Assembly (NCBI GenBank): GCA_050302495.1
Contig: JBNLBP010000001.1
Span: 191,269-255,268, forward strand
Direction: 5' to 3'
Origin: Candidatus Pacearchaeota archaeon
GTDB lineage: Archaea > Nanobdellota > Nanobdellia > Pacearchaeales > GW2011-AR1
DNA: 64,000 nt
Shown here: piece after piece, positions 6,869-58,360 of the stretch
Numbering within the stretch: position 1 is the first letter of the stretch
Layout: the number at the start of each line of letters is the position of its first letter
The notes under the pieces: model-generated
The model's database searches: none
Told to the model about the DNA's origin: nothing
The model's input: the letters and a program-made list of their open reading frames with translations, nothing else
Program-made: the position numbers and the translations under genes

Positions 6869-7315
6869 ATGAACTGGAGCTACTTTGCTGGATTTATGGA
6901 CGGAGAAGGTTCCATTATTCTTAAACCTCCTAGAGTTAGACTTTATGTGGCAAACACCAATAAGCAAGTTTTAGAAGAAATTAGTAATTTTCTTGGTTGT
7001 GGTAAAGTTTACGATATAAATATGAAAAACAAAAGTGATAAATGGAGTAAACAATATGGTTGGACGATTGCCAATCATAAAGATGTTCTTAGGATTTTGA
7101 AAGGTTTGAAAAACAGATTAATAATTAAAAAACAACTTTGTCAGGATGCAATTAAGTATATTGAAAATAAACGATGGCAGAGGAACTATTTATCCAAGGA
7201 AGAATTGCAAAAGTGGGTTTATTTAAAATCCAGTCGAAAAATTGCCAGAAAATTAGGTGTTAGTCAATCTGCAGTTTTAAATTATCTTAAGAAGTATGGA
7301 ATTTATTATCGGTAA
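6869..7315 (+). CDS. LAGLIDADG homing endonuclease-like protein (single motif, with C-terminal HTH)
   Basis: N-terminal YFAGFMDGEGSI is a near-canonical LAGLIDADG motif. C-terminal SRKIARKLGVSQSAVLNYLKKYG looks like an HTH. 148 aa. Starts 107 nt from the tRNA-Thr 5' end and abuts rps3ae tail-to-tail. Confidence 0.7.
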   Translation: MNWSYFAGFMDGEGSIILKPPRVRLYVANTNKQVLEEISNFLGCGKVYDINMKNKSDKWSKQYGWTIANHKDVLRILKGLKNRLIIKKQLCQDAIKYIENKRWQRNYLSKEELQKWVYLKSSRKIARKLGVSQSAVLNYLKKYGIYYR

Positions 7316-9499: not shown

Positions 9500-11353
9500 A
9501 TGCTATTAAGAGGTGTAAAGAAGGGGCAAGTTACTATTTTTATTATCATTGCAATAGTTATTGTTGCTGCCGTTGGAATTTTCTTTTTATTGAGGAGTCA
9601 GACTAGTATTTCTAGGATTCCTTCTGAGTTTGCACCAACTTACGAAAGCTTTACTTTTTGTCTAGATAGCAAGGTTGAATCAGGGGTTAAGGCTTTGGAA
9701 TCTCAAGGAGGCTACATTGATTTGCCTGAGTTTGTTTCTGGTTCAGAGTATATGCCTTTCTCTTCTCAACTTAATTTATTAGGTAATCCTATTCCTTATT
9801 GGTATTATGTGTCTGGAAATAACATTGAGAAGGAACAGGTTCCAAGTAGGCAAGATATGGAAAATGATTTGAGCGGTTTTATTGAATCCAAAGTTGTTGA
9901 TTGTATCCCTGAAGACTTGGATGAAGGTTTTGAGATTACTGTGGGAGATCCTTTGGTCCGGACTAGCATTAAACCAGGAGAAGTCCAGGTCAATGTTAGA
10001 ATGGATTTTACAATTAGTAAAGATGATGAGTCAGTGAGTATTAATAATCATCAATTGATCTTTGATTCAGAGTTAGGAAGGTTGTATTCTAATGCAATTA
10101 TTGCTTACGAGGCTGAACAAGATGAGTTGTTTTTAGAGAATTATGGTGTTGATGTTTTGAGATTATATGCTCCTGTTGATGGAGTTGATTTTACTTGTAG
10201 CCCTAAGGTTTGGAGTGCTGATGAAATATTTGAGGATCTATCTGTCGCAATACAAGAAAACACACTTTCTATTAAATCTCAGGGTAACTCTGAAGATTAT
10301 TTTGTGGTAGATTCTTTGAATTCAAGAATTTCTGATGGGTTTTATGTGAAATTCCTTAATTCAGAAAGTTGGTCAAGTAGTTTTGAAGTAAATCCTTCTG
10401 ATGGTCCTATTTTAATTGCAAATGCAATTGGAAATCAGCAAGGTTTGGGGGTTTTAGGATTCTGTTATGTTCCATATCATTTTGTGTACAATGTTAATTA
10501 CCCTGTTTTGGTTCAGGTTTATAGTGAAAATACAGATGAGTTCTTCCAGTTTCCTGTTGCTGTAGTCTTAAGGGGTAATAAAGCTAGGGAGGCTGTTGCT
10601 TCTTCTGGTGCTTCAACTTATGAGGGCCCCAATATATGTGAAAATAAAAATACTGGTCTGAGAGTAAGGACTATTGATTCTAACTCGAATCTTGTTAATT
10701 CAGAGATTTATTTTGAGTGCTTTGGGGATAGTTGTAAAATAGGAGATAGTGAAAATGGTATCTTAGAAGATGCTTTCCCTCAGTGCGTTAATGGATATAT
10801 AATTGCAAAGGCTGAAGGTTTTGAGGATACTAGTGTCCAGATAACTAACATTGGTCCTGGGAACTTTGATATTATCATGAATAAACTTTATGATACAGAA
10901 GTTCTTTTGAATTTGGATGCGATTGCTTATAATGGAGAAGCTACAATTACTTTTGAAAGAGAGGGTTTCTCTCAAACATTGGTTTATCCAACTCAAAAAG
11001 AGATTAGTTTGAGTGAAGGGTCTTACAATATCAGTGTTTATATTTATAGAAATGCTTCTTTGAGTTTAGGATCAAGTGTTCAACAGTATTGTATTGACGT
11101 TCCTAGGGCGATAGGAGGTTCTTTGGGTTTGACTAAAGAAGAATGTTTTGATGTAGAAGTTCCTGAACAAATTATTTCTAATGCTCTTTCCGGAGGAGGA
11201 GAAGTTAATTATTATGTTTCTGAAAATCAATTAAGTAGTGCAAGTCAGATTGTTGTGGGTGCAACTAGCCTTCCAGAGCCAAATTCACTTAATCAACTTC
11301 AGCAAAACTATGTTTTATTTGATAGTAAAAGTTTGGAGGTTTTACTTAGATGA
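9500..11353 (+). CDS. membrane-anchored extracellular protein, hypothetical
   Basis: N-terminal TM/signal anchor (TIFIIIAIVIVAAVGIFFLL) followed by about 580 aa of S/N/G-rich non-hydrophobic sequence. Its stop overlaps the giant-protein ATG (ATGA, 11350-11353), suggesting translational coupling. Confidence 0.6.
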   Translation: MLLRGVKKGQVTIFIIIAIVIVAAVGIFFLLRSQTSISRIPSEFAPTYESFTFCLDSKVESGVKALESQGGYIDLPEFVSGSEYMPFSSQLNLLGNPIPYWYYVSGNNIEKEQVPSRQDMENDLSGFIESKVVDCIPEDLDEGFEITVGDPLVRTSIKPGEVQVNVRMDFTISKDDESVSINNHQLIFDSELGRLYSNAIIAYEAEQDELFLENYGVDVLRLYAPVDGVDFTCSPKVWSADEIFEDLSVAIQENTLSIKSQGNSEDYFVVDSLNSRISDGFYVKFLNSESWSSSFEVNPSDGPILIANAIGNQQGLGVLGFCYVPYHFVYNVNYPVLVQVYSENTDEFFQFPVAVVLRGNKAREAVASSGASTYEGPNICENKNTGLRVRTIDSNSNLVNSEIYFECFGDSCKIGDSENGILEDAFPQCVNGYIIAKAEGFEDTSVQITNIGPGNFDIIMNKLYDTEVLLNLDAIAYNGEATITFEREGFSQTLVYPTQKEISLSEGSYNISVYIYRNASLSLGSSVQQYCIDVPRAIGGSLGLTKEECFDVEVPEQIISNALSGGGEVNYYVSENQLSSASQIVVGATSLPEPNSLNQLQQNYVLFDSKSLEVLLR

Positions 11354-14300
11354 TTAAGAATAAGTTTTTTGTTGTAGGTATTTTTGTTTTGATATTGGGG
11401 ACTCTTCTTTTGGGAGGGATAGAGGCTTATAGCGTTTCTACTCCTAGTTATTCTTTGTATAACAATGCTGGAGGTGTTGGGGGAAGTTTTGCAAGTTTTA
11501 CTCAGCAAGGTTTTGATAGCGAATTATGTTCTGCTGGAACAGATTTTCTTTTACAAATACAACCTTTTGAATGTGAGCCTGCAGTTGTGAGGAGTGATCT
11601 TCTTGAAGAACAAGATGTTACTGTTTTGTGTAAAATTGGAGCTACACAAATAAATCCTTTGATTGATGTTCAAGCTATAAACACTCTAAACATTGTTGGG
11701 GAGTATCCTAGAGAAATAAAGAGTATTGGTTATTTCCCTTCCCAGTCTGCTTTGGGTTATTATGATTTTGATGAAACTCTTACTGATCCTGCTTTGAATA
11801 ATTTGGGTTATGTTGCTATAACCCTTAGACAAAACCCTAATGAAAGTTCTATGCCTGATTTTGTTTCTGGAAATCTAACAGCCAAGATTAATTATGATGT
11901 TAAGAATGCATTTGGCGTTGGTCAGGCTGAATTTTATCTTCCTGTTTTGAATGATGAGGATTATTTTAACAATATAAATCAGTATAGTTTTTGGGAAGGT
12001 AGAGGGTACCTTAGGGCTGATAGTGTTGGCACGGATGATGCCAGTATATCTCTTTATTCTGATGTTTCTTCTGGATCTGCTAGTTTTGGAAACTCTGGAA
12101 AGCAAAGAGTTACTCAAGTTAGATTGAATGGAGGTGAAACTTCTGGTTCGATTTATATTCCTGGTTTTAGCCCTTGTTTGGCTTCAATGAAGTTGAAACT
12201 TAATGGTGTTGAAGATCCAGATACTAGAGCAGAGTTGTTGATTAATACAGATCATGTTGAAATTAATGATAATGGTGATTTCTTAGAAAGTAAGTGTACT
12301 GTAACAGATTTGGACAAGAATGGTTTGAATCAGAAAGTTAGTATTAGGTGTAAGGAAGATGATGGCAGTTCTAGTTTTAATTTATTTTTGTCCCCTAGAG
12401 TGAGAATCTCTATTGATGGAATTGCTAAAGATTATTCTGTTGGAGATTATCTTTATTCTAACAATGGAAGAGGTGTTTATTTGGGTTATATTAGTTCTAA
12501 GGGTGGATCAACAGATGTTGAAAATTTATATGCCGTTTTGGTTTCTTTACCTGAAGAGAAAACTAAGTTAACAGAGGATGAAATTTCAAGTATTGCAATA
12601 CAAATGAATCTGTTGTTTTCGGATACTGAAGGTTCAGGAGCAGCGGTTTTTGATATTGGGGCCGAAATTCTAAAGAAATTCTCAGGGGCTTCAGTTACTC
12701 TTGCCAAATGGACTGTTAGCGGACAAAATATACAAAAAGTTGATTTTAAGACAAATGTTGTTTCCCCTCAATATGATTTTGAAGGAGAAAAAGTTTCCTT
12801 AAGTGGTTTTTCTGAAGGAGAAGATAATGGGGTTGTTGAGGTTGTTCCGGAATCTTATGATTTACAGAAAGCTAATTTAGATGTTGGAGGGATTTTGCCT
12901 AAACAAGTTTACAAAGTTTACAAGGATGGAGAAGATACAGGTTATTATTTTACTGCTAGTGAGAGTGGATCTCCTAAATTTATTTTGAGAAAGAACACTG
13001 TGACGGAGATTTTAGGTGTGGGAGAATTTTATGGAAAGGATTGTTCTTTACATCAGTCTTGTTCTGAGTATATTTTATCAAAGGTAGATAACAGCGTTTC
13101 AGGAGACTTTTTTGAAGGAGTTGTTTCAGGAAGTGTTTTAGTTAATGAGAATAAACTTGTTTTAAACAAACTTGTATTTAATTCAAATTCAAACGAGTTG
13201 TATAAACAATATTATGATAAAGCTATAACTGATTTTGAAACTGTTTTGAATAGTTTTGGAGGGTTAAGTATTGATGGGGCAGATGATACTTATGGTGAGA
13301 GAGCTTTGTATCAGGCTATTAATCTTTCTAAAAGGATCAATCAAAATAAGGCTTTGAAACAACTTTGTCAAGAATTTATTGAGAGCTATCCTGATTCAAT
13401 TAAACCTTTAGATATGTGTGAAGATGACTATTCTTTATCTAACTCGGGTATTTCTAATAGAGATGTTTTAGTTAACGGAGAGATAAAAACAATTTCCTTT
13501 GAAGGTATAAAAGAGCCTACTTACCAAGAATACGGTGCAGAAGTTTTGATAAGAAGTTCGGACGGTAAGATCCAGACTTATCAATTAAGAAAGGATAAAG
13601 TTGTATATTTGAATTTAAAAGATAATGCTTCTGGTTCAGAATATATTAAACTAGATTCGGTGGATGAAGATTCTGCAAGGGTTACGGTTTATGTTTCTGG
13701 AGAAAATCTTGCAAATCAATTATTTTCTTTGAATAGCTATACTTTTGATATTGATGAAACAAGAGGTATTGGAGGAGGGTATAGTTTAACCCTTACTGAT
13801 ACTAACATAGAAAAGGTTGCAAGGGTTTCAGTGGTTCCAAGTTTTAATTATCAGAATTCTGAATCTGAATTTGGATTTAATATTGGCATAGAGAAACGTT
13901 CAATACAACTTTCTGACGAACAGATTGAGAATAGGGTTGATAGTTTAAGTAATGCAATTTCTGATCTTGAAAAGGCTTCAAATGCTCTCAATACGTTTAA
14001 TGAAGCTAGTGCTAAGGTTTGTTTAGCAACAGGAGCTGTTTTAACTGCTAAGAATTTCTTGGCTAACTCGGATGGTAAATCTATAGCGAGACAGAAGGTC
14101 ATGCGTAGTTCTGGAGGGTGGAATGATTTTTGTGCTAGTGAAGTAAGTAAAGGGAATTATATTTCTCTAGATGATTGTTTCCTTGAGAATTCTGATGAGA
14201 TAGATTCTCAAGTTGATGAAGTTTTCAATACAATACAAACTCAGAATGAAAGAATAAAACAACTTGAAGCTGATTCTTTGCAAACAGGAACTTTAACAAA

Positions 14301-17300
14301 TAAGGTTGTTGATCAACAGGAATTTATGAAGGATTATTCTCAGATTGGATCTGATTCTTTAGTGGGCTTGGGTAATACTTTCGTCGATCCTACTGGTAAA
14401 AATGAACCTCTTGAGATTGATGAAATTAAGAATTTGTTAAGTTACCAGGGTTGGGAAAGTGGTATCTATAGCATAGATGATCTTAAAGATATAGAGCTTT
14501 ATGCAACTTTAGTTAAGAGTACAAATGATGCTGAGAGCAAGAAGTCTTACAGCCAAACACTTTACTCTTTGCTTTATGACGTTCAAAATAACGCAGGGAA
14601 TTTTGTAGAAAGAACTTCTTTCTTTGACAAGTATTCTCTAGAGGGTCACCAGGGAGGATTTATTTCTTCAGATGATAAGATAAAGAGAATTCAGGTTTCT
14701 GATTTAAAGACTTGGGCAGATGTTGAAAGTTCATATCCTGGAGGGATGAGTGTTGTTTTACTTCCAAATTCGATTATCTTCCCTGGAAACCCTGCAGATT
14801 ATCTTATTGCGGATAATGAATTGGTTTATCCGGTTGTTGATATAGCTACTAATAGGGAATATCTTTTGGTTTTGAATGATGATTATATTGTTACTAGAAC
14901 ATTCCAGTTAAATCCTTTGAATGGTCAGTTGGTTATGGTTAATGATAAAGTAAACCCTCTGAGTTTAGCTTTTGATAAATATGATGAAGGTTCATATGAG
15001 AATAGTTATAAGAATCCAGAAGTAAGGTATTATGAGGAAGACCCTTACAAAGGTTATCCTGCGATTGTTCCTTTAGATACAAATGATGGTTGGTATGCTG
15101 CAACTAAACCTAAGCTTCCTGTTGGAAGTCAGATTACTGCTTATGATGCTTCAGGTAGATTGAATAGTTTCTGGTTATGTAACGTTGGATCTAATGGTTT
15201 GGAAGAATTTTCTAGTTCTGGTTTAGGAGATGATATTTGCCAACAAATTAATGTGGGGGTTCCTGGAACTGTTTATAATCAATTTGCTGGATTGAGTGAA
15301 AGTAAAACTACAAGGCTTGTAACTGATGCTGTTGATTCGATTGAGAAGGCTCAGAGAGCTTATAAGAATGGAGTTAATTCTGTTAGAATCAACGGTCAGA
15401 ATTACAAAGTTGGAGAACCTGCGGTAGAAACTCCCGCAGTTCAGTGTCAAGATTTCATGTCTCCTAAAGAATGTAATTTATTGTTTAATGTTTGTGATCC
15501 TGTTGTTTGTCCTAGCTCAAGATGTGATTTTGGAGGGGCTTACCCTGTTAAGGATGTTGTTCAGACAGGAATAGTTGGAAGTATTGCTCTCTGTGCACCA
15601 AATTATAAAGAGGGGATAAAGGTTCCGGTTTGTACAACAGGTGTTCAAGCTGGTTTGGATTCATGGATAAGTGTCCAGGAATCATATAGGGATTGTTTGC
15701 AGGAAAATTTGGAGAGTGGAGAAACTATTGGTGTTTGTGACGAGATACATAGTGTTTATGCTTGTGAATTCTTTTGGAGACAATCAATACCTTTGGCTAA
15801 AGTAGCTGTTCCAAAATTAATTGGATTAATTTCAGGAGAGAACACCCGTGGTGGAGGAGAATATCTGGGATTACAGAGTGCATGGGATAATGCAAAAGAT
15901 TCTTTAGACTACTTTAAACAATATTATGCTTCTGAATCTTATAATGCTTTCAAAGTTAGAAGTGTTGATGAAGCTGGAACTGCGGTTTGTAAAAGTTATG
16001 TATCTACGGTTTACCCTTCTAGTGCTGAATTATTAGATAGTTTAACTACTCCACGTTCGCCTCCGCAATTTACAGGAAGCTTTGATGAGATTCCATTTAC
16101 TACCGCAACAAATCCTCCCACCTCACAGTATAAGGTTTATTACCACATTTATTCTGGACAAGATTCTGGAGCTTATTACAGAGTTTATCTTAAGGGTGGA
16201 AGTGGGAGTTTCTATCAAGATAGCGCGCTTAATAGAGTAGTTGATTCCGGTTACGTTTCAGTAGGAGATTATGCTTCAGATACAGTTGACTTTACTGCAC
16301 CTTCAGGATATACCCAATTATGTATTGTTGTAAATAATCAGGAAGAGTGTGGTTTCGGAAAAGTGTCAACTTCTTTTGCAGTTAATTATGTTAATGATTT
16401 GTATTTGCAGGAACAAACTACTTCGGGGGTTACAACAGAAGAAGAATGTGTTTCTGGAAGTGCTAGTTTGTATAGCTTATTGAATCCTAACCTTCAAGAT
16501 GTGGCTGAAGGTTTAATCAACCCTGAGCTGTACCAAAAAGGTATTACAAGAGTTTGTGCTACAAACAGCCCTGGTATTGGAACGGATGCTAAGGATGGGA
16601 CTGAAAATGCAAGATGGAGAAAAGTGGGTTACTGTACAGATACAAACGTTGGTTGTTGGCTAGATACTGATTCCGTTAAAGATGCTATTAAATCCTTAGA
16701 TGTTGAGAATTCTGTTTTAAATGACACCGCTCAGAGTTATCTTGATGATTTGGTAAATTCTGGAGATTATGTTAACAATCAGAATTATAGTCAGACTTTA
16801 AGAGACGTTAAGAAAGAATCTGATTCTTCTAAGAAGATAGAAATAATAAATAATATTTTGGATAAGGTATTCTTTAGTAATCAAAAAGCTGAACTTTATT
16901 TCTTGAGAGGTTTGGCTTATGGAGATCTTTCTGGTTTGGAATTTGGTAAGATTGAACAAATAAAAACAAATAGTGTGGACCTTGGAACAATTGTTGATGA
17001 CCAAGGAAACGTTTGCATCTTGCCTCAAGTTCCTAGTGATATTTCTTCAATTGATGATGCTCGGCAAAGAGTATTGAAAGCTGCAGAAAAATTAGATGGG
17101 GGTTTGGCTTTCTCTGGAGATTATGCGTGCTATAGTGCTGCTGTTTATGTATACCAATATGCAGGGGTTTCTGCTGTTCCTTCTTATGCAGATAAATCTG
17201 GGGCCACCTATACCTTAAAGGATTCAAATTCAAAAGTTACAATTGGCGTAGATAAAACTTCTCAAGGAAGTGTTATTTTCCAAGTTGGAACAGGTTATAA

Positions 17301-19425
17301 TAAGATCGGAGAAGATAACTATGATACTAAACTAGCATCTCTTCAACCTGGAGACCAGTTGGATATTGTTTGGGCCTCTAAATTGCCTCACTCGGTTATA
17401 TTTATTTCTTGGATTAATCCTGCCACAAATGAAGAAACTACTTCTGTTACTGGATATGCTAGAATCTTTGATTGGAATGGTGCAGATTTGAAGATCGATG
17501 AGAAAGATGAAAATGGGCTTGTTTGTGGAGAAGATAATAAGTATGTTAGAACTCTTAATAAGGGTAAAGTTAATGAGGAACAATATTGTAATACTTACAG
17601 ATACACGAATTTGTATTTAACTTCTGATGTTCATCCTGTTTATCTATATAGATCTCCTCAATTAAGTGGCACAACTATTTCTACGGGTACTGGTGGTACG
17701 GGAGTTAGTAGTGTTTTAGCCAAGTTTTCTTCAGGATATTCTTCTCCTGATATTGAATTCCAAGATGGAACTAGTTATAGAAATGTTCACTATAAGTTCC
17801 AAGAGGGAGGTTGGTATTGGTTTAATCCCAAAGATAATTTTTGGTATTCTGTTAGCGATAGTATTGAAGGTAAGGCAGTTTCATTGGAGGTGAATAGACA
17901 AATAATTACTTCTCTTCAAGAACGTAATGGCAACTACATAGAGGGTCTTGGAGTTATTATAAATAATGTTCTTAGTTTCAGTGGGGGTGTTTTGTTTGGT
18001 AGAATTAATTTCATTAGTTCTAGTCCGGATTTGAAAACAGAGAATGTTAATTTGAATAGTGAAGGTATCTTTAAGGTAGATCTTTCTTTTAATGAACAGC
18101 CTTATTACTTTAGATTTAAAGAAGGTGTATGGGAATTTAATCCTACTAGGGGTATTGATCCACGTTATTGGTTTGATGTTTCGGACGTTTCATTTAATAA
18201 AGCTGCTAGTCAGGTTTTGGTTTCAGGTGAAGCTAAGGTTGTAGGTTCAATTCCTTCAGATCCAATACAATCTGTTACCGTGAGCCTTGTTGATAAGACT
18301 TATTTTGAGGGGGCTGCCCTGCTTTATGATTTGTCGGATAATTCAATAATTGAGTCTACACAGGATGTTGATTCTCAAAAATTGGATTCTTGGGAGAGTG
18401 AGAATTTAGGAAGCACCGATTTGGGCAGGTTTACTTCAAAACAAATTTCAATACTTTATGATGCTCCTAGTTGCGTTTATTGTGAGAGTTATCCTGATGA
18501 TTGTGATAGTAATTTATGTGCAGTTATTGGTAAAAAATTAGGCGCTTCTTGTCAGTATTATGCAAAGGGTGCAGATATAAGTGATACTCCTATATACAAT
18601 TGTCGTGCAGGAGAAGGGTACACAGATAGAGAATTAAGATCAATATATGAAGCAACTCAGTGTAATGATTGTGGGTCTGGTTTGGGTAACTTCTGTGGTG
18701 AGACTGAATGCTTAGATATTGGGGAAAGAATTGGTAAGACTTGTGAATATGGGTTCTTGAGTTGTAAAGAAGCACAACCTGCTCAAGACGACACTTCTGA
18801 TATTCCGAATTGGAATACTCTTTCTGCTGAACAAAGGGACGTTTATTCTAGTGCAACACAGTGTAGTGATTGTATAACAAGTATAAGTTCTACAAGTGGC
18901 ACTTCTAATTATTGCGATGCTAATCTTTGCGCATCAATTGGTTACAAATTAGGCAAGAATTGTGTTCAGGAACCAGGCTTGACTAAAACTTGTATTGAGG
19001 GAATTGGTTTAGATAATCTTGATCAACAGTTAGTTGATGCTCTTTATAGAGGTCTGGATGACAATAATAGGGCTGAGATAATGTCCTTGATTGAACAAGG
19101 AGCTGATATCAATGTTAAAGATGATGATGGATGGACTCCTTTGATTTATGCATCTCGTCTTGGACATCTTGACCTTGTAAAATATCTTGTTGAAAATGGT
19201 GCAGATGTTAGTGTTAAAGATGGTATAGAAGGTTGGACCGCTCTTATACATGCCTCTATTAAGGGAGATGTTGACATTGTAAAATATCTTGTTGAAAATG
19301 GTGCAGAGGTTAATACCCAAAGTGATTCTGGAGAAACAGCGTTAGATCGAGCTGTTCAACTTAATAATGTTGATGTTGTTAGTTATTTGCAATCTAAAGG
19401 TGCTAAATCTGGGAGTGAACTTTAG
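11350..19425 (+). CDS. giant (2691 aa) secreted/surface protein with C-terminal Cys-rich modules and ankyrin repeats
   Basis: Uninterrupted 8.1-kb ORF. N-terminal hydrophobic signal/anchor (FVVGIFVLILGTLLLGG). Several Cys-rich blocks, e.g. around 15450-15800 and 18468-19010. The last about 125 aa are 3-4 ankyrin repeats (DGWTPLIYASRLGHLDLVKYLVENGADV; GWTALIHASIKGDVDIVKYLVENGAEV; GETALDRAVQLNNVDVVSYL). Confidence 0.8.
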   Translation: MIKNKFFVVGIFVLILGTLLLGGIEAYSVSTPSYSLYNNAGGVGGSFASFTQQGFDSELCSAGTDFLLQIQPFECEPAVVRSDLLEEQDVTVLCKIGATQINPLIDVQAINTLNIVGEYPREIKSIGYFPSQSALGYYDFDETLTDPALNNLGYVAITLRQNPNESSMPDFVSGNLTAKINYDVKNAFGVGQAEFYLPVLNDEDYFNNINQYSFWEGRGYLRADSVGTDDASISLYSDVSSGSASFGNSGKQRVTQVRLNGGETSGSIYIPGFSPCLASMKLKLNGVEDPDTRAELLINTDHVEINDNGDFLESKCTVTDLDKNGLNQKVSIRCKEDDGSSSFNLFLSPRVRISIDGIAKDYSVGDYLYSNNGRGVYLGYISSKGGSTDVENLYAVLVSLPEEKTKLTEDEISSIAIQMNLLFSDTEGSGAAVFDIGAEILKKFSGASVTLAKWTVSGQNIQKVDFKTNVVSPQYDFEGEKVSLSGFSEGEDNGVVEVVPESYDLQKANLDVGGILPKQVYKVYKDGEDTGYYFTASESGSPKFILRKNTVTEILGVGEFYGKDCSLHQSCSEYILSKVDNSVSGDFFEGVVSGSVLVNENKLVLNKLVFNSNSNELYKQYYDKAITDFETVLNSFGGLSIDGADDTYGERALYQAINLSKRINQNKALKQLCQEFIESYPDSIKPLDMCEDDYSLSNSGISNRDVLVNGEIKTISFEGIKEPTYQEYGAEVLIRSSDGKIQTYQLRKDKVVYLNLKDNASGSEYIKLDSVDEDSARVTVYVSGENLANQLFSLNSYTFDIDETRGIGGGYSLTLTDTNIEKVARVSVVPSFNYQNSESEFGFNIGIEKRSIQLSDEQIENRVDSLSNAISDLEKASNALNTFNEASAKVCLATGAVLTAKNFLANSDGKSIARQKVMRSSGGWNDFCASEVSKGNYISLDDCFLENSDEIDSQVDEVFNTIQTQNERIKQLEADSLQTGTLTNKVVDQQEFMKDYSQIGSDSLVGLGNTFVDPTGKNEPLEIDEIKNLLSYQGWESGIYSIDDLKDIELYATLVKSTNDAESKKSYSQTLYSLLYDVQNNAGNFVERTSFFDKYSLEGHQGGFISSDDKIKRIQVSDLKTWADVESSYPGGMSVVLLPNSIIFPGNPADYLIADNELVYPVVDIATNREYLLVLNDDYIVTRTFQLNPLNGQLVMVNDKVNPLSLAFDKYDEGSYENSYKNPEVRYYEEDPYKGYPAIVPLDTNDGWYAATKPKLPVGSQITAYDASGRLNSFWLCNVGSNGLEEFSSSGLGDDICQQINVGVPGTVYNQFAGLSESKTTRLVTDAVDSIEKAQRAYKNGVNSVRINGQNYKVGEPAVETPAVQCQDFMSPKECNLLFNVCDPVVCPSSRCDFGGAYPVKDVVQTGIVGSIALCAPNYKEGIKVPVCTTGVQAGLDSWISVQESYRDCLQENLESGETIGVCDEIHSVYACEFFWRQSIPLAKVAVPKLIGLISGENTRGGGEYLGLQSAWDNAKDSLDYFKQYYASESYNAFKVRSVDEAGTAVCKSYVSTVYPSSAELLDSLTTPRSPPQFTGSFDEIPFTTATNPPTSQYKVYYHIYSGQDSGAYYRVYLKGGSGSFYQDSALNRVVDSGYVSVGDYASDTVDFTAPSGYTQLCIVVNNQEECGFGKVSTSFAVNYVNDLYLQEQTTSGVTTEEECVSGSASLYSLLNPNLQDVAEGLINPELYQKGITRVCATNSPGIGTDAKDGTENARWRKVGYCTDTNVGCWLDTDSVKDAIKSLDVENSVLNDTAQSYLDDLVNSGDYVNNQNYSQTLRDVKKESDSSKKIEIINNILDKVFFSNQKAELYFLRGLAYGDLSGLEFGKIEQIKTNSVDLGTIVDDQGNVCILPQVPSDISSIDDARQRVLKAAEKLDGGLAFSGDYACYSAAVYVYQYAGVSAVPSYADKSGATYTLKDSNSKVTIGVDKTSQGSVIFQVGTGYNKIGEDNYDTKLASLQPGDQLDIVWASKLPHSVIFISWINPATNEETTSVTGYARIFDWNGADLKIDEKDENGLVCGEDNKYVRTLNKGKVNEEQYCNTYRYTNLYLTSDVHPVYLYRSPQLSGTTISTGTGGTGVSSVLAKFSSGYSSPDIEFQDGTSYRNVHYKFQEGGWYWFNPKDNFWYSVSDSIEGKAVSLEVNRQIITSLQERNGNYIEGLGVIINNVLSFSGGVLFGRINFISSSPDLKTENVNLNSEGIFKVDLSFNEQPYYFRFKEGVWEFNPTRGIDPRYWFDVSDVSFNKAASQVLVSGEAKVVGSIPSDPIQSVTVSLVDKTYFEGAALLYDLSDNSIIESTQDVDSQKLDSWESENLGSTDLGRFTSKQISILYDAPSCVYCESYPDDCDSNLCAVIGKKLGASCQYYAKGADISDTPIYNCRAGEGYTDRELRSIYEATQCNDCGSGLGNFCGETECLDIGERIGKTCEYGFLSCKEAQPAQDDTSDIPNWNTLSAEQRDVYSSATQCSDCITSISSTSGTSNYCDANLCASIGYKLGKNCVQEPGLTKTCIEGIGLDNLDQQLVDALYRGLDDNNRAEIMSLIEQGADINVKDDDGWTPLIYASRLGHLDLVKYLVENGADVSVKDGIEGWTALIHASIKGDVDIVKYLVENGAEVNTQSDSGETALDRAVQLNNVDVVSYLQSKGAKSGSEL
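18468..19010 (+). repeat. three tandem Cys-rich modules within the giant protein (coding repeat)
   Basis: Modules SCVYCESYPDDCDSNLCAVIGKKLGASC / ATQCNDCGSGLGNFCGETECLDIGERIGKTC / ATQCSDCIT...NYCDANLCASIGYKLGKNC share the pattern ATQC-DC...C..LC..IG..LGK.C. Confidence 0.5.
19030..19422 (+). other. ankyrin-repeat region (C-terminus of giant protein)
   Basis: Repeated 33-aa units with the consensus G-TPL--A---GH-D-VK-L---GA-VN. Confidence 0.7.
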
Positions 19426-20132
19426 AAGAAATCTCTTAAATCTATAACCGATTTTCTTATATTTTCAAAGGGAGTTGCTATTTTTGGATTGATCCCTCTG
19501 TATATTTCTCCAGGAGTTTTTATTAGTGCACTTTCGTTTTCTTCAGAGATTTCTATGTTGTTGTTAGCAGGGATTACATAAAAGGGTGTTTTTCCTTCTG
19601 CTTTTTCATCGCTGGTTGTTACTAAAGGATATATGTAATCTGTTTTTAATAGGCTGAACGGTTTTAAGGCCCTTTGGATATTGTCTATGGTGTAAACCCT
19701 TATTGTTGAATCTGATTGGAGGCTAGGATTTTTTGAACGATATCCCAGTATTTCTAGTTCTTGAATAAGGTTGTTTTTGGAAGGTGTTTCTGCCCTTGCT
19801 TTTAAGAAAATGTATTCGTTGTCTGGATTAATGTTTTGTTTGACTAGTTTTTTGTTTTCCTTGTTGAAATCATATATTATGAAAGGGAGCATTTCTTCAT
19901 TATTTGCAGTATCACTTATTTCTATCTTTTGTATAAAATATTTGTTAAAACCTTGAATTTTTAGTTCGCCTATCTCTCCAATCTTTTCATATTTTGGTAT
20001 TGAGATGTTTGCAAGTCCGTTTTCTTGATAAGTTGCTCTTGGTTTTGGATTTTCTTGTATTTTATTTTCTATCGAACAACTTGTTAGAGCTAAGATTGTT
20101 GCTAATCCTCCTAAAATTGTAGCTTTGTTCAT
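19422..20132 (-). CDS. putative secreted lipoprotein
   Basis: N-terminal MNKATILGGLATILALTSCS has a hydrophobic signal plus a lipobox-like L-T-S-C. Convergent with the giant gene; its stop overlaps 19422-19425. Confidence 0.55.
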   Translation of the reverse strand: MNKATILGGLATILALTSCSIENKIQENPKPRATYQENGLANISIPKYEKIGEIGELKIQGFNKYFIQKIEISDTANNEEMLPFIIYDFNKENKKLVKQNINPDNEYIFLKARAETPSKNNLIQELEILGYRSKNPSLQSDSTIRVYTIDNIQRALKPFSLLKTDYIYPLVTTSDEKAEGKTPFYVIPANNNIEISEENESALIKTPGEIYRGINPKIATPFENIRKSVIDLRDFF

Positions 20133-20180
20133 GTATTTTTTTTGGGATAAGTATTTTATAAAGATTTATAGAATTTTGAA

Positions 20181-20253
20181 AGCGGAGGGTGGGACTCGAA
20201 CCCACGAAAAGCCGGGTTGCAGCCGACCGCAGTAGCCGCTGTGCCACCTCCGC
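20181..20253 (-). tRNA. tRNA-Cys (anticodon GCA)
   Basis: Reverse complement GCGGAGG-TG-GCAC-AGCGGCTA-CTGC-G-GTCGG-CTGCAAC-CCGGC-TTTTC-GTGGG-TTCGAGT-CCCAC-CCTCCGC-T. 73 nt, discriminator U. Confidence 0.85.
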
Positions 20254-20276
20254 ATAATTATTGGACTAGTTTTAAG

Positions 20277-20284
20277 TTTTTAAA
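20277..20284 (-). promoter_or_regulatory. TATA-like box for tRNA-Cys
   Basis: TTTAAAAA on the minus strand, centred about 28 nt upstream of the tRNA 5' end. Confidence 0.35.
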
Positions 20285-20332
20285 ATCTATGATTTAGAAA
20301 AGTATTTAAAATGAATTTCATTTCATTCTTTT

Positions 20333-20743
20333 ATGTTAGGTGATTTAAACTATTTGTCTGTTGTTGTAGCTCTTGTAGCTAGCTTTGTATTTGGGTGGCT
20401 TTGGTATGGAGTTATCTTTAGCAAGACTTGGATGAGGCTAAATGGTATGAATATGAAGGGGAAGAAGCCTAAGAAAGGTGTTATGGCTAAGGCTATGATA
20501 TTGAATATTCTTGGGACCTTTATTATGGTTTGTGTATTTGGTTTATTGATTTTAGCTACAGGGATGATTACGGTTAGTGGAGTTTTAACACTTGCACTTT
20601 GGATATGGTTAGGATTCTTTGTTAGTACAACTCTTTTAGGAAGTGTATTGTGGGATATGAAGCCTTGGGCGTTATTTTGTTTTAATGCTGTTTATTGGTT
20701 AATCAACTTAGTTATAGTTGGATTGATTCTTGTTTCTATATAG
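20333..20743 (+). CDS. integral membrane protein, hypothetical
   Basis: 136 aa with four predicted TM helices. Confidence 0.55.
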   Translation: MLGDLNYLSVVVALVASFVFGWLWYGVIFSKTWMRLNGMNMKGKKPKKGVMAKAMILNILGTFIMVCVFGLLILATGMITVSGVLTLALWIWLGFFVSTTLLGSVLWDMKPWALFCFNAVYWLINLVIVGLILVSI

Positions 20744-20813: not shown

Positions 20814-21551
20814 ATGGAGATTACAGAAGGTCTTTCGGAAATATTTGGAATGTTTGCAGCAGATGGGAATTTGCAGGAGAATCATATTAGTATGTGGGGC
20901 AATATTCATGAAGATAAGGAATACTATGATAGGGTTGTTTGCCCTTTGTTTTCTAAAGTATTTGGAATAAATGTAAATGCACATGAGAAAGAAAGCAATT
21001 CTGTTTATGGGTTTTACATCTGTAGGAAGGAGATAATTAAGATTTTCAAGGATTTTGGTTTTACTCGTAGAAAGACCTATTCGGTAAAAATTCCACATGA
21101 AATTTTATTTTCTAAAGACAAGAACATAATTTCGGCTTTTATAAGGGGTTTTGCTGATTGTGATGGTTGTTTAAATTTTATGAAACGTTATGAAAAAGGA
21201 TATTCTTCTTTTAAGAGAAAATATCATACTTATCCGAGGATTTTTATTGGTGTTGTTTCTAAGCAAATTATTTTTGATTTGAGTTTTTTGTTGGATTTCT
21301 TGAACATTGGCCATTCTGTTCACTTTTCTTCAAAGAAGAAGGTTAATGAGGCAGATGTTTATCGGATTGCTGTTAGGGGTCCAGAAAGAATAAATAAATG
21401 GATGGATTCTATAGGTTTCAATAATTACTCTAAATTTACGAAATATCTTGTCTGGAAAAAACATGGTTTTTGTCCAACCCCTTCTTCTCTTAAACAAAGA
21501 GAATTGATCTTGCAAAATGAATTAATTCCAGAAAGTCTTTATGAAATGTAA
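20814..21551 (+). CDS. LAGLIDADG homing endonuclease-like protein (double motif)
   Basis: Two dodecapeptide-like motifs, IFGMFAADGNL and FIRGFADCDGCL, about 100 aa apart. ATG at 20814. Stop lies 35 nt upstream of the intron-containing tRNA-Leu. Confidence 0.7.
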   Translation: MEITEGLSEIFGMFAADGNLQENHISMWGNIHEDKEYYDRVVCPLFSKVFGINVNAHEKESNSVYGFYICRKEIIKIFKDFGFTRRKTYSVKIPHEILFSKDKNIISAFIRGFADCDGCLNFMKRYEKGYSSFKRKYHTYPRIFIGVVSKQIIFDLSFLLDFLNIGHSVHFSSKKKVNEADVYRIAVRGPERINKWMDSIGFNNYSKFTKYLVWKKHGFCPTPSSLKQRELILQNELIPESLYEM

Positions 21552-21585: not shown

Positions 21586-21711
21586 GCTCCGGTAACTCAG
21601 CCTGGATAGAGTGCCAGATAAATTGAATAAAATGAGATTTAGGCAAACCTTCTATCCAGTTAAGTCTGGAAAGTAAGCTGGAAGTCGCAGGTTCGAATCC
21701 TGTCCGGGGCA
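21586..21711 (+). tRNA. class-II tRNA, probably tRNA-Leu (anticodon TAA), with an about 41-nt intron at a non-canonical position
   Basis: Acceptor GCTCCGG/CCGGGGC + A, D-arm ACTC-AGCCTGGATA-GAGT (Leu-like AGCCTGG loop), T-arm GCAGG-TTCGAAT-CCTGT. Total 126 nt; a class-II tRNA of about 85 nt would leave an intron of about 41 nt. The only canonical loop reading is U33-UAA-G37 (TTAAG at 21660-21664). This forces the intron (about 21619-21659) to lie after position 32 rather than 37. A 9-bp helix CTGGATAGA (21603-21611) / TCTATCCAG (21651-21659) spans it. Exact junctions unresolved. Confidence 0.6.
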
Positions 21712-21718
21712 TTTATCT

Positions 21719-22627
21719 TTATATCTCAATTGTGTCAAAATCATTTACTATAGAAGAATTCTTGAAATGTTTCTTTGCATTTTTTAATAATTCATCAAGT
21801 CTTGTTTCGTAACGTTGTGAAATATGAGTTAGAATAAGTTTTTGGACATTGGCACGTTTTGCAATTTGTCCTGCTTGTCCTGAAGTCATGTGTTTGTGTT
21901 CCTTTGCAGTTTCTGATTCAGTGTCATCGAAGCTACTTTCGCAAATTAATAGATCAGAGTCTTCTACAAATTTTTCAATTTTCTTGTTGAAAACCGTATC
22001 AATTATGAATGAGATTTTCTTTCCCTTTTCTAAATAGGTGAAATCTTTTGCCTTGTAAGTTTTTCCCTTGACTTTTATGTTCTTTCCATTCTTTAATTCG
22101 GATAAATGCTTTCCGTGAGGAATTTTTGCTTTCTTTAGTTTGTTTTTGTCAATTCTAAGTTTATCTTTTATTACAAAATTATATGCGTTTGTGGGAATTC
22201 CATGTTCCATTATTTCAGATTCTAAGTATAGCTCAGAGTCCTCAAAGAATTTTTGTTTTTTTGTTACTTCTTCTATTTTTGCTTTAAATCTAAAAACGGG
22301 AACGAATATTCTTATGAAGTTTTTTAGATATTCTTTTGTATTCTTTGGACCAAATATTCTTAGTTCTTTATTATATTCGCTTAGAGCTAGGGTTTGGAAT
22401 AATCCGGGGAGACCTAGGACATGATCTCCATGCCAGTGAGTTATTAGAATTTTTGTTAATTTTCCAGGGTTTAGTTTAGCTTTACGGAATTGTCTCTGAG
22501 TTCCTTCTCCACAATCTATTAGAATATTCTCTTTTTTGTATTGAAGAAGTATTGCGGTGTGATTTCGCTTCAAAGTAGGAATGCTTGCAGATGTTCCTAG
22601 AAATGTTATTTTTATTTTCTCTGTCAT
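21719..22627 (-). CDS. rnz: ribonuclease Z (tRNA 3' endonuclease), metallo-beta-lactamase fold
   Basis: ITHWHGDHVLGLPGL (HxHxDH motif) and overall RNase Z profile. Stop lies 8 nt from the tRNA 3' end on the opposite strand. Confidence 0.85.
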   Translation of the reverse strand: MTEKIKITFLGTSASIPTLKRNHTAILLQYKKENILIDCGEGTQRQFRKAKLNPGKLTKILITHWHGDHVLGLPGLFQTLALSEYNKELRIFGPKNTKEYLKNFIRIFVPVFRFKAKIEEVTKKQKFFEDSELYLESEIMEHGIPTNAYNFVIKDKLRIDKNKLKKAKIPHGKHLSELKNGKNIKVKGKTYKAKDFTYLEKGKKISFIIDTVFNKKIEKFVEDSDLLICESSFDDTESETAKEHKHMTSGQAGQIAKRANVQKLILTHISQRYETRLDELLKNAKKHFKNSSIVNDFDTIEI

Positions 22628-22665
22628 GGAATATACAAAGAAAAAGGATTTTTATAATTAGTGAT

Positions 22666-22887
22666 TCATAACCATTTAATGTGTTTCCATTTCTCTCTCA
22701 ATTGACCTATAAAAATCAATATATAAGAAACTATTGAGAATACAAAACCCATTGAAAAACTAACTTTCCATAAATTTGTCCCAAATTCAAAAAAGGTTAA
22801 AATAAATAGGCATATCGCAAAGAAAGCCATAGCCCACCCAGTTTCATATTGCCAATTTTTGTCTGTTTGAATTTTTTCTTTTGTCAT
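22666..22887 (-). CDS. small membrane protein
   Basis: 73 aa with two TM helices. Confidence 0.35.
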   Translation of the reverse strand: MTKEKIQTDKNWQYETGWAMAFFAICLFILTFFEFGTNLWKVSFSMGFVFSIVSYILIFIGQLREKWKHIKWL

Positions 22888-22991
22888 TGTTTTTTTTAGT
22901 AAATGATACTTAATAAAATTTCCTAAAGCTCACACTATCAATAATAAGCCAGAAATCGGCCTCGCGAAAATTAATTAGGCATAATCGCAAT

Positions 22992-23243
22992 TTACTCTTT
23001 CTTTAGTGCTGTTGAAGCTGGAGAAATGTATATGATTGTATCTCCTCGAAGGAAAGTCAATCCTAAACTTTTCTTTAATTCTCCGTTTTGCATTTCTTTG
23101 ACGTTATCCAACACAAGATTTATGTGGATGTCAAAAGCTAGCAAAGTTCCTACGAACTGTTTGTCGCCTTTCAAATGCACTAAAACTTCCTTTCCCTTTG
23201 AGTTGTTCAAAAGGTCAAGAGGTCTTTCGTATCCGTTAACCAT
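22992..23243 (-). CDS. Sm-like archaeal protein (SmAP/LSm)
   Basis: Sm1/Sm2 motifs: VLVHLKGDKQFVGTLLAFDIHINLVLDNVKE ... RGDTIIYIS. Start set at internal ATG (MVNGYERPLDLL) for a typical about 84-aa Sm protein. The ORF-track start at 23330 would add 29 aa. Confidence 0.7.
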   Translation of the reverse strand: MVNGYERPLDLLNNSKGKEVLVHLKGDKQFVGTLLAFDIHINLVLDNVKEMQNGELKKSLGLTFLRGDTIIYISPASTALKKE

Positions 23244-44895: not shown

Positions 44896-44949
44896 GTAAT
44901 TGTTATATTTCTCATAAAAGCTTAAATATTTCTTCTTTATGGATTGTGC

Positions 44950-46056
44950 ATGGCCGAACCTGAAGAGAAAAAAGAGAATGTTGAGGATCTTTTTGTTCCT
45001 AATAAGGATTCAATTAAAATAGATTTTGATCAGAAGGATTTTTTTGATGTTTTGAAGATGGTTGCTCCGGGCACATCTATTCGAGCGGCATTAGATGATT
45101 TACTTAATGCAGAGATGGGAGCTTTGATTGTTATTGATAATGGAAGGGTTTCTTCTGTGGTTGAAAAGGGTTTCAAGATTTATTCTAAGTTTTCCCCTCA
45201 GAAACTTGTTGAGCTTGCTAAAATGGATGGTGCAATTGTTTTATCTGGAGATGTTAAAAAGATCCTTTACGCAAACACTCTTCTTGCTCCTGATCCTCAA
45301 ATTCCAACTCGTGAGACTGGAACTAGGCATAAGGCTGCTGAAAGAACTTCAAAACAAACAGGTTCAATAATTGTTGCAATATCCGAAAGGAAGAGAAAGA
45401 TTACACTTTATTATGGAGATAAAAGGCATGAACTTAGAAAATCTTCAGAGGTTTTAAGAAGAGCTTCAGAAAATATGCAAATACTTGAGAAACAGAGAGA
45501 AAGTCTTAACGAATCTGTTTTAGATCTTAACGTTTTAGAATTGCAGAAGATGGTTACTGTTAACGATGTTTCTAAGGTGATTCAAAATTTTGAAATTCTT
45601 AAGAGAATCTCTTCTGTGATAAAGAAGTATCTTATTGAACTTGGTAAAGAGGGAGTTATTGTTAGTTCTAGATTAAGAAATCTTACTCAGGGATTAGATC
45701 GTGAAGAAGACCTTGTTTTAAGAGATTATTTTGCTTCAAATCATTCTAAAATAGAGCAACTTTTGGGGGAAATGGATCTTGATTCTCTTTTAGAAACTCA
45801 GGATATTTCGGATATACTTTTTGATGAAGTTTACGATATGAAAATTTTTCCTAGGGGATTAAGAATACTTAAGAAGACCAATATCCCTGAACGTTATATT
45901 GATTCTCTTGTTGCTCATTTTGGAACTCTTGGTAAAATTTTATCTGCTCGTTATGAAGATTTGCTTAGAATTTTCCAGAGTGAGGGCATGGTTGACTTCT
46001 TTAAAGAAGAACTTTATAATTTAAGAGAGAAAATTAGTTTTGGAAGAAAACTTTGA
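44950..46056 (+). CDS. DisA-like diadenylate cyclase (DAC domain protein)
   Basis: N-terminal DAC-domain signatures DGAIVL...GTRHKAAERTSKQTGSIIVAISE, followed by an about 200-aa helical C-terminal region. Confidence 0.7.
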   Translation: MAEPEEKKENVEDLFVPNKDSIKIDFDQKDFFDVLKMVAPGTSIRAALDDLLNAEMGALIVIDNGRVSSVVEKGFKIYSKFSPQKLVELAKMDGAIVLSGDVKKILYANTLLAPDPQIPTRETGTRHKAAERTSKQTGSIIVAISERKRKITLYYGDKRHELRKSSEVLRRASENMQILEKQRESLNESVLDLNVLELQKMVTVNDVSKVIQNFEILKRISSVIKKYLIELGKEGVIVSSRLRNLTQGLDREEDLVLRDYFASNHSKIEQLLGEMDLDSLLETQDISDILFDEVYDMKIFPRGLRILKKTNIPERYIDSLVAHFGTLGKILSARYEDLLRIFQSEGMVDFFKEELYNLREKISFGRKL

Positions 46057-53703: not shown

Positions 53704-54984
53704 ATGGAACAGACTTATGTTAAAGATTTGAGGACTTCTTCTAAGGAAGTTTTGTTGAAAGGTTGGGTTTATGAGATAAGAAATCTAGCTAAGCTTGGAT
53801 TTGTTCTTTTGCGAGATAGAACTGGAATTGTTCAATGTGTTGCTAAATCTGAAGATATTATGGCTAAGATTTCGGGGTTGTCTTTAGAGAGTGCAGTTGA
53901 AATTACTGGGAAAGTTAAAAGTGCTAAGGTTAAGGCGGAATTTACTAGAGATGATGTTGAAATTGAAGTTACGGGATTAGAAGTTATCTCTATTGCGGGT
54001 AAATTACCTATACATGTTAATGAAAAAAATGAAAAACCTGCTTCATTCCAGAATAGACTTGACTATAGGTTTTTGGATATTAGAAAACCAAAGGTTCAGG
54101 CAGTTTTTGAGATACAATCAACAATAATGAGTGCGTATAGAGAGTTTATGATCAAAGAGGAAGGGGCTTTAGAAGCGGTATTTCCTTCAATAATTGCAGC
54201 TAGTTCTGAAGGCGGTACTGAATTATACAAATTGAAATATTTTGAAAAAGATGCTTATTTATCTCAGAGCTGCCAATTGTATAAACAAATGATTGCTTGT
54301 TCTTTAGAGAAGGTTTTTACAATCTTTACTGTTTGGAGAGCAGAAAAGCATAATACTCCTAGACATTTAAATGAATCAAGGCAGCTGGATTATGAGCAGA
54401 GTTTTGCCGATGAGTTTAAGGTTATGGATGTTTTGGCTAGGTGCGTTCAGTTTGTTATACAGAAAGTTATAGACACTAATAAAAGAGAACTAGATATTTT
54501 GGGTCTGAGTTTGAAGATTCCTAAGACTAAATATCTTACTTTTGAAGAAACAAATCAGTTATTGAGAAAAAACAAGATACATACAGAGAAATTAGATTTG
54601 ACTGGAGATGGAGAGAAGAAATTAGGGGAATTATTTCCAGATACAATTGTTTTTGTTCATGATTGGCCTATAGAGGGAAAACCCTTTTACATAATGCCTA
54701 AGGGAGATGGTTTAAGCGGAGGATTTGATGCTATTTATCAAGGCATGGAAATTTCTTCGGGTGGGCAGAGAGTACATATTCCAGAATTGCTTGAAAAGAG
54801 GTTGAAAGTTAAAGGTTTGAATCCTAAGGACTTTAAGGGTTATATTGATAGCTTTAGATATGGTGCTCCGCCTCATGCTGGATGGGGTCTTGGTTTGGAA
54901 AGATTAACTATGCTAATTTTAGGGCTAGAAAATATAAGAGAGGCAGTTTTGTTCCCTAGAGATAGGACAAGATTAACTCCTTAA
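53704..54984 (+). CDS. aspS: aspartyl-tRNA synthetase (archaeal type)
   Basis: Class-IIb synthetase. Motif-2 region WRAEKHNTPRHLNESRQLDYEQSF (RHLNE...D.E pattern of AspRS) and C-terminal GAPPHAGWGLGLERL...FPRDRTRLTP. Confidence 0.8.
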   Translation: MEQTYVKDLRTSSKEVLLKGWVYEIRNLAKLGFVLLRDRTGIVQCVAKSEDIMAKISGLSLESAVEITGKVKSAKVKAEFTRDDVEIEVTGLEVISIAGKLPIHVNEKNEKPASFQNRLDYRFLDIRKPKVQAVFEIQSTIMSAYREFMIKEEGALEAVFPSIIAASSEGGTELYKLKYFEKDAYLSQSCQLYKQMIACSLEKVFTIFTVWRAEKHNTPRHLNESRQLDYEQSFADEFKVMDVLARCVQFVIQKVIDTNKRELDILGLSLKIPKTKYLTFEETNQLLRKNKIHTEKLDLTGDGEKKLGELFPDTIVFVHDWPIEGKPFYIMPKGDGLSGGFDAIYQGMEISSGGQRVHIPELLEKRLKVKGLNPKDFKGYIDSFRYGAPPHAGWGLGLERLTMLILGLENIREAVLFPRDRTRLTP

Positions 54985-57694: not shown

Positions 57695-58360
57695 ATGAAT
57701 TTTGGAAATATTGAAATAAAGTGGCTTGGTCACTCGGGATTTTTGATTAAAAATTCAAAGGTAATTTATATTGATCCTTATAACATAAAGGAAGGTTTGG
57801 ATAAGGCAGACATAATTTTGATAACCCATAGCCATTATGACCATTGTAGTTTTGCGGACTTGGAGAAGATTGTTAAGGAAGGCACTAAAATTATTATCAC
57901 TGCGGATTGTCAGAGTAAAATTGTTAGGTTTAAAGTTCCAATAAAAATCGAAATTATTGAGCCTATGCAGGAAATGGACCTTGGAGGAATTTCTATCTCA
58001 ACTATTCCCTCTTATAATACTGATAAACATTTTCACCCTAAAGATGAAGGTTGGGTAGGTTATGTTATTAAGATGAATAATGTTATTATTTATCATTCTG
58101 GAGATAGTGATCTTGTACCTGAGATGCAAAGACTTACTGGCCATAAACAACCTGGAAAGGAGTTTATTGCTTTACTTCCTATTGGAGGAAGGTTTACTAT
58201 GAACGTAGAGGAGGCCGCTGAGGCCGCTAAATTGATTAAGCCTAGTGTTGCTATTCCTATGCATTGGGGGAGCATCATTGGCTCTGAGGATGATGCTAAA
58301 GAGTTTAAGGAACTTTGTGAAGAGAATAATATAAAGTGTGAGATTTTGAGGAAAGAATGA
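57695..58360 (+). CDS. metallo-beta-lactamase fold hydrolase
   Basis: ILITHSHYDHC (HxHxDH) and downstream His/Asp ligands. ATG at 57695; the ORF-track start is TTG. Confidence 0.75.
   Translation: MNFGNIEIKWLGHSGFLIKNSKVIYIDPYNIKEGLDKADIILITHSHYDHCSFADLEKIVKEGTKIIITADCQSKIVRFKVPIKIEIIEPMQEMDLGGISISTIPSYNTDKHFHPKDEGWVGYVIKMNNVIIYHSGDSDLVPEMQRLTGHKQPGKEFIALLPIGGRFTMNVEEAAEAAKLIKPSVAIPMHWGSIIGSEDDAKEFKELCEENNIKCEILRKE

Follow-up and report, generated by a model that had tools for sequence, protein, structure and literature searches.

What does an ankyrin repeat domain do at the extreme end of a giant protein that an archaeon appears to send out of the cell? The question is raised by a 64,000-nucleotide stretch of a Candidatus Pacearchaeota genome (contig JBNLBP010000001.1, positions 191,269 to 255,268; hereafter the window), in which an open reading frame (ORF) on the forward strand (11350..19425, +) encodes a protein of 2,691 residues from a family specific to Woese-/Pacearchaeota. 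The window has a GC content of 32.7% and carries genes for TFB, Gins51, rpS3Ae, rpS8e and TFE, in addition to a presumably intron-bearing tRNA gene. TFB, Gins51, rpS3Ae, rpS8e and the tRNA identify the window as archaeal, in agreement with the initial annotation, and the source, a low-GC member of the Woese-/Pacearchaeota group of DPANN archaea, is tiny and probably symbiotic. We find that the giant protein ends in four ankyrin repeats, carried by an exchangeable tail behind a constant core, and propose with moderate confidence that these repeats form an extracellular protein-binding tip, which would dock the giant protein and its NlpC/P60-like module onto a surface protein of a partner or prey cell.

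The C-terminus had been assigned to ankyrin repeats from the sequence alone, and profile searches bear out this assignment. Scanning the last 161 residues against Pfam matched all three families tested (PF00023, PF12796 and PF13637) above their curated thresholds, with Ank_4 at E=3.8e-32 (110 bits, cutoff 22.7), Ank_2 at E=3.8e-28 (98.3 bits, cutoff 27.3) and Ank at E=5.1e-28 (96 bits, cutoff 21.1). The strength of these matches far exceeds chance, and the Ank families are the sole Pfam matches over the entire 2,691-residue protein. The interval first proposed, 19030-19422, opens in frame at residue 2561 and closes on the final sense codon; its end is correct, whereas its start has to be moved about 9 nucleotides upstream, to 19021. 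The peptide DGWTPLIYASRLGHLDLVKYLVENGADV, quoted with the assignment, corresponds to residues 2595-2622. That such repeats are uncommon in archaea also agrees with a published survey, which found them in 11% of archaeal strains compared to 51% of bacterial strains (PMC3932732).

The last 138 residues could be aligned end to end and continuously with the solved structures of designed ankyrin repeat proteins (DARPins), and this alignment runs through an N-cap, two internal repeats and a C-cap. The block therefore consists of four repeats, the upper of the three to four units counted initially. As delimited by Pfam and the DARPin alignment, the domain spans residues 2558-2691 (19021..19422, +) and comprises a degenerate N-cap repeat R1 (residues 2558-2592, 35 residues; 19021-19125, +), the internal repeats R2 (residues 2593-2626, 34 residues; 19126-19227, +) and R3 (residues 2627-2659, 33 residues; 19228-19326, +), and a C-cap repeat R4 (residues 2660-2691, 32 residues; 19327-19422, +), directly followed by the stop codon (19423-19425, +). 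The tandem units of ~33 residues are thus predicted to form a capped stack. Apart from the replacement of the consensus motif TPLH by TPLIY or TALIH, the repeats are ordinary and consensus-like. They share with DARPins and consensus ankyrins the 33-residue repeat and the order of N-cap, two internal repeats and C-cap, but differ from them in being predicted to lie outside the cell and in being fused to an exported protein of 2,550 residues.

At the DNA level, R2 and R3 are 79% identical over 85 nucleotides, including a nearly identical stretch of 36 nucleotides, as expected from an internal duplication. The ankyrin-coding DNA has a GC content of 36.5%, compared to 35.0% for the remainder of the giant gene; because the composition of the block matches that of the rest of the gene, a recent horizontal import was rejected. 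An origin from a phage or a defence system was rejected as well, given that PHROGs matched the ankyrin part only and that the gene sits in a housekeeping neighbourhood. The comparison drawn initially with the ankyrin proteins by which symbionts and pathogens bind host proteins does not extend to kinship with known effectors: the best of the Dot/Icm-type NCBIfam T4SS_Ank models, AnkY, scored 53.5 bits (64.4 bits on the 161-residue fragment) against a cutoff of 600, and matched the ankyrin repeats only. When the last 338 residues served as query in a word-indexed homologue search, only generic bacterial and eukaryotic ankyrin proteins were returned, with 45-58% identity to the ankyrin part; this search missed the identical parent protein P0001, its prefilter apparently losing giant proteins, and is uninformative on the origin of the block or on giant relatives.

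The topology of the giant protein suggests on which side of the membrane the ankyrin block lies. Its N-terminus carries a predicted Sec signal peptide (residues 1-26; 11350..11427, +), MIKNKFFVVGIFVLILGTLLLGGIEA, followed by YS after the predicted cleavage site. Residues 1-31, which take the form MIKNK, a hydrophobic stretch and IEA before YS, are the single strongly hydrophobic segment, and no second membrane-spanning candidate was found along the 2,691 residues. The same layout is seen in 114 of 120 listed relatives, in which the N-terminal segment is the sole hydrophobic one and its ending, SA before Y, is conserved. The protein contains 54 cysteines, many of them invariant in the family, a content consistent with disulfide bonds formed outside the cell. 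The protein thus looks exported, most likely with cleavage of its signal, as had been supposed when it was called secreted. With no second crossing of the membrane, the ankyrin block should lie on the same side as the remaining protein, which would make it extracellular.

Comparison with its relatives showed that the giant protein combines two parts with very different degrees of conservation. At least 398 homologues of ~1,900-3,600 residues were recovered from a sequence database; when one genome per species was scanned, 519 genomes contained relatives, nearly all of them labelled Woesearchaeota, Pacearchaeota, Nanoarchaeota or Nanoarchaeia. For domain counts we used 191 family members, namely the 120 listed relatives and 71 complete giant ORFs from species-representative loci. 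Residues 1-1850 could be aligned in 119 of 119 listed relatives, with one variable insert near residues 500-600; beyond residue 1850 the coverage drops stepwise, and the last 300 residues are common to a handful of relatives. The family consists of a constant, non-repetitive core of ~1,850 residues and a mosaic, exchangeable tail. The conserved core (residues ~27-1850; 11428..16899, +) contains dozens of invariant residues, many of them cysteines, and has no sequence match in Pfam, PHROG or PDB. Its most conserved stretch, which is also that of the whole family, lies at residues ~1361-1570 (15430-16059, +), has many invariant cysteines and carries the motif QCQDFMSPK.C.LLFNVCDPV.CPSSRCD..G.YPV.DV.Q.G..GS..LC.PN...; AlphaFold modelled this stretch with a predicted local distance difference test (pLDDT) score below 35 even when given the alignment. 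Pfam domains of the relatives lie in the tails only and comprise the SLT lytic transglycosylase, Amidase_3, DUF1615, leucine-rich repeats (LRRs) and ankyrin. Overall, the tails combine modules of murein-hydrolase type, including SLT, Amidase_3 and two papain-like Cys/His modules, with small repeats and, in a minority of members, with an ankyrin or LRR solenoid.

The tail of the window protein begins with a Cys-His-Asp module resembling NlpC/P60 or CHAP domains (residues 1885-2095; 17002..17634, +). Two of its residues, C1927 and H2014, are invariant; a third, D2041, occurs in 91% of 44 sequences and is invariant in a set of 21. The structure model places C1927 at the start of a helix (42-53 in the model), H2014 in a strand (128-139) and D2041 in another strand (152-157), so that the cysteine would sit at the N-terminus of a helix and the histidine and a polar residue on adjacent strands, as in a catalytic site of this type. 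The module matched neither NLPC_P60 nor CHAP in Pfam, and a profile search against the PDB gave noise only. We consider it a probable cell-wall peptidase, NlpC/P60- or CHAP-like and possibly of the papain fold, that would act as a hydrolase. It is followed by β-rich repeats with the motif FQDG..YKF..G.W.W (residues 2106-2360; 17665..18429, +), which were delineated by within-family jackhmmer searches, occur in 84 of the 191 members and have no Pfam match. Three tandem Cys-rich repeats (residues 2375-2548; 18472..18993, +), defined by a regular expression and repeat register and visible at the DNA level as repeat D2, then lead to the ankyrin domain. Each of them has six cysteines in the pattern C-x2-C-x6-13-C-x4-C-x10-C-x6-16-C; they are present in 43 of the 191 members and have no Pfam match, and the matches outside the family to the last 338 residues touched the ankyrin part only. 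The initial picture of a binding head presented on a long stalk therefore has to be revised in its second half: the 2,550 residues that precede the ankyrin domain are a non-repetitive core of ~1,850 residues, an enzyme-like module and small repeats, whereas a role of the end as a tip remains plausible.

This role is suggested by what other members carry at the same place. LRRs occur in eight relatives and are terminal in most; in P0015, P0019, P0022 and P0023, the Cys/His module, the β repeats and the Cys-rich repeats come in some order before a terminal LRR. This alternation of two unrelated protein-binding solenoids, ankyrin and LRR, at the tail end is the strongest argument at hand for a binding tip. 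Ankyrin itself does not characterise the family. It was found in five of the 120 listed relatives (the query P0001, P0016, P0065, P0095 and P0104) and in none of the 71 complete giant ORFs from species-representative loci, which gives five of 191 overall; no other ankyrin ORF was found in the window or in 84 fetched loci. In P0016 the ankyrin block is flanked by an SLT domain on one side and a terminal Cys/His module on the other, and in P0065 it is followed by ~130 residues, so that the extreme C-terminal position is a trait of the window member and not a rule. Ankyrin co-occurs with modules of hydrolase type instead of replacing them: P0001, P0016, P0065 and P0104 have both in one chain, and P0095 has ankyrin and no recognised hydrolase module. 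By core distances, P0001, P0016 and P0095 are each closest to relatives without ankyrin, and P0065 and P0104 are the only mutual nearest neighbours among the carriers. As the nearest core relatives mostly lack it, ankyrin is distributed patchily over at least four lineages. A common origin of the five blocks was considered: they share the C-cap motif [VI]I.YL.SKGA..G, but their mutual identity of 44-48% does not set them apart from unrelated ankyrins.

The family is apparently the published fam00969 of "giant murein transglycosylase proteins", with which we matched it by description. According to Castelle et al. 2021 (PMC8204110), fam00969 proteins reach ~3,000 residues, occur in Pacearchaeota and Woesearchaeota only, are recognised by a murein-type lytic transglycosylase domain and were proposed to bind or degrade bacterial cell walls, murein enzymes being treated there as normally absent from archaea. 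Vigneron et al. 2022 (PMC9723730) made a similar point on giant extracellular SLT proteins of these lineages. The window protein agrees with these descriptions in lineage, size class (2,000-3,600 residues) and predicted extracellular location, and its core is 38-58% identical to members that carry SLT, including P0077, named "transglycosylase SLT domain-containing protein" at NCBI. It differs in lacking SLT and in possessing an NlpC/P60-like module and an ankyrin end; neither Pfam (PF01464) nor within-family SLT profiles found an SLT domain in it. SLT cannot serve as the defining mark of the family, being carried by about a third to under half of the 191 members, and the unannotated NlpC/P60-like module is at least as frequent as SLT in the examined set. 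The word ankyrin occurs in neither PMC8204110 nor PMC9723730, and P0065 has already been named "ankyrin repeat domain-containing protein" by the NCBI pipeline. The ankyrin and LRR variants, the NlpC/P60-like module, the strictly conserved partner gene described below and the arrangement of constant core and exchangeable tail at a fixed locus appear to be absent from the literature that we searched. An extracellular ankyrin domain on a giant surface protein of DPANN archaea is thus unusual, but not categorically new.

The giant gene is one half of a fixed gene pair. Directly upstream lies a partner gene of 617 residues (9500..11353, +) that overlaps the giant ORF by 4 nucleotides, and a homologue of it was found at this position in each of the 65 loci whose sequence extended far enough. 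The partner proteins of the window and of three other genomes (L001, L003 and L004) have 600-623 residues and 46-51% identity, and in each of the four the partner gene runs 4 nucleotides into the giant gene. The window partner has 10 cysteines, and its N-terminus KKGQVTIFIIIAIVIVAAVG (KKGQVTIFIII...) displays a [KR]G-Q-[VI]-T-[IV]-F motif and a hydrophobic helix, with G9, Q10, T12 and F14 invariant in the four orthologues. The sequence [KR]-G followed by Q/A/S and then by a hydrophobic helix near the N-terminus is the mark of archaeal class III (prepilin-type) signals. The partner therefore looks like a pilin-like protein with a class III-type signal. No Pfam, NCBIfam (E<=0.01) or PHROG profile matched it, so the class III reading is drawn from the motif itself.

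Putting these features together, we propose that the giant protein would be exported and act at the cell surface along with its pilin-like partner, and that its tail would carry target-specific functions, which in most members would be murein-cutting enzymes. The target-specific part of the window member would be the probable NlpC/P60-type peptidase plus the ankyrin domain, and the latter might bind a protein on the partner or prey cell and thereby position the remaining protein. Cell-wall hydrolases commonly have a layout in which a catalytic part is combined with a targeting part. The pairing of ankyrin and hydrolase-like module in the giant proteins resembles this design as it is seen in modular peptidoglycan hydrolases such as endolysins and autolysins, where the targeting part is C-terminal.

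Three other functions of the ankyrin end were weighed against an extracellular docking tip. It might be a delivered effector, the core mediating contact or translocation and the ankyrin end being released into the cytoplasm of the partner to bind a host protein. Polymorphic toxins of Rhs type likewise consist of a conserved trunk and variable C-terminal modules; ankyrin domains are normally cytoplasmic, and bacterial symbionts inject ankyrin effectors (PMC3932732). The core might conceivably have such a role, and some DPANN giants, the SPEARE proteins (PMC6642349), were proposed to form pores. These proteins of Nanohaloarchaeota (Hamm et al. 2019) contain protease, laminin-G and restriction-endonuclease domains, have a transmembrane segment near the C-terminus with a cytoplasmic end, and were proposed to act in host attachment or invasion. 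They resemble the present family in their giant size, their multi-domain build, their mostly extracytoplasmic location and their occurrence in DPANN symbionts, and may be regarded as functional analogues; however, they share no detectable homology with it, and the present family possesses an N-terminal signal only. Delivery appears unlikely to us, since no cognate immunity-like gene is conserved downstream of the giant gene in the window, L001, L003 and L004, Pfam finds no RHS/YD, toxin or recognisable cleavage domain in the giant protein, most of the variable modules are murein hydrolases, which are active outside the membrane, and the adjoining Cys-rich repeats suggest a disulfide-bonded extracellular region.

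The remaining two explanations direct the ankyrin domain towards the producer itself. By folding back onto the NlpC/P60-like module or another hydrolase, it could inhibit or gate the enzyme until contact is made, and the presence of ankyrin and a hydrolase-like module in one chain in four members would suit such a cis-regulator. There is a precedent in Bd3460, an ankyrin protein that, as reported by Lambert 2015 and cited in PMC8080830, blocks the predatory DD-endopeptidases of Bdellovibrio for self-protection. In so far as that citation describes it, Bd3460 is alike in that ankyrin repeats are functionally coupled to a predatory peptidoglycan peptidase, but it is a separate small protein that guards the predator's own wall, whereas the window ankyrin is fused in cis and belongs to an organism for which no murein is known. 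To current knowledge these archaea are devoid of murein, whose enzymes are treated in PMC8204110 as normally absent from archaea, and self-protection would be unneeded; moreover, ~97% of the family members carry hydrolase modules without ankyrin, P0095 has ankyrin without a recognised hydrolase module, and the tail-end LRRs of other members argue for target recognition, so that we regard regulation in cis as quite improbable. Alternatively, the ligand of ankyrin might be one of the producer's own proteins, for instance the pilin-like partner or the S-layer, and the giant protein would thereby be retained or assembled on the surface of the cell that makes it. Such an anchor could be of use to a protein that lacks a C-terminal transmembrane segment or other recognisable anchor and is always co-encoded with its partner. 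Nevertheless, the partner is present in all 65 loci and ankyrin in only ~3% of members, hence retention cannot generally depend on ankyrin, and the conserved core is the likelier interface with a conserved partner; self-anchoring is accordingly very unlikely in our judgement.

A broader extension of the docking tip, which we put forward only tentatively, is that the whole locus serves as a polymorphic host-recognition cassette, in which the core and the pilin-like partner would together be the invariable contact machinery, whereas the target would be set by the exchangeable tail with its ankyrin and LRR tips. If so, these tips might recognise an S-layer, outer-membrane or eukaryotic surface protein instead of, or besides, murein, and tail swapping would be a host-range switch in Woese-/Pacearchaeota. 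The hosts of these archaea are essentially unknown, and the giant family is the main published genomic clue to bacterial attachment of some of them. The ankyrin and LRR tails are small, soluble and expressible domains that could possibly serve as bait for a ligand on the host surface.

The surroundings of the gene pair are conserved in the same four genomes. Genes for FtsY, phosphoglycerate mutase, Gins51 and rpS3Ae precede the giant gene and those for TFB, rpS8e and RNase Z follow it, yet the tails of the giant proteins differ. The shared neighbourhood and different tails indicate that the four giant genes are positional orthologues with remodelled ends. The gene directly downstream of the giant ORF is a different, unrelated one in each of the four. 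The candidate for an immunity-like partner in the window, the ORF at 19422-20132 (-), was rejected, since it matched no known family and a relative does not conserve it at this position; this convergent ORF of 236 residues overlaps the stop of the giant gene by 4 nucleotides and may not be a real gene. L001, the genome of the ankyrin-bearing P0065, encodes a 335-residue LysM (peptidoglycan-binding) protein directly downstream of the giant ORF (16183-17190, -).

Several other features of the window were recorded. The tRNA match at 21586-21711 (+) is 126 nucleotides long, scores 42.5 bits in Rfam and was not reported by ARAGORN; it presumably represents a tRNA gene with an archaeal intron. Free-standing ORFs resembling LAGLIDADG homing endonucleases lie among the housekeeping genes at 6869-7315 (+) and 20814-21551 (+), and the relative L003 has such ORFs at 15622-16314, 19909-20640 and 22197-23057. 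Two genes look bacterial for an archaeal genome, namely a DisA-type diadenylate cyclase with DAC and DisA-linker domains (44944-46056, +) and a leucyl-tRNA synthetase matching the editing domain PF13603 (34098-36599, +). Finally, two paralogues of class II tRNA synthetases of the Asp/Asn/Lys type (53704-54984 and 56112-57413, +) are interleaved with two paralogous DHH/DHHA1 phosphoesterases (55036-56079 and 58357-59388, +).

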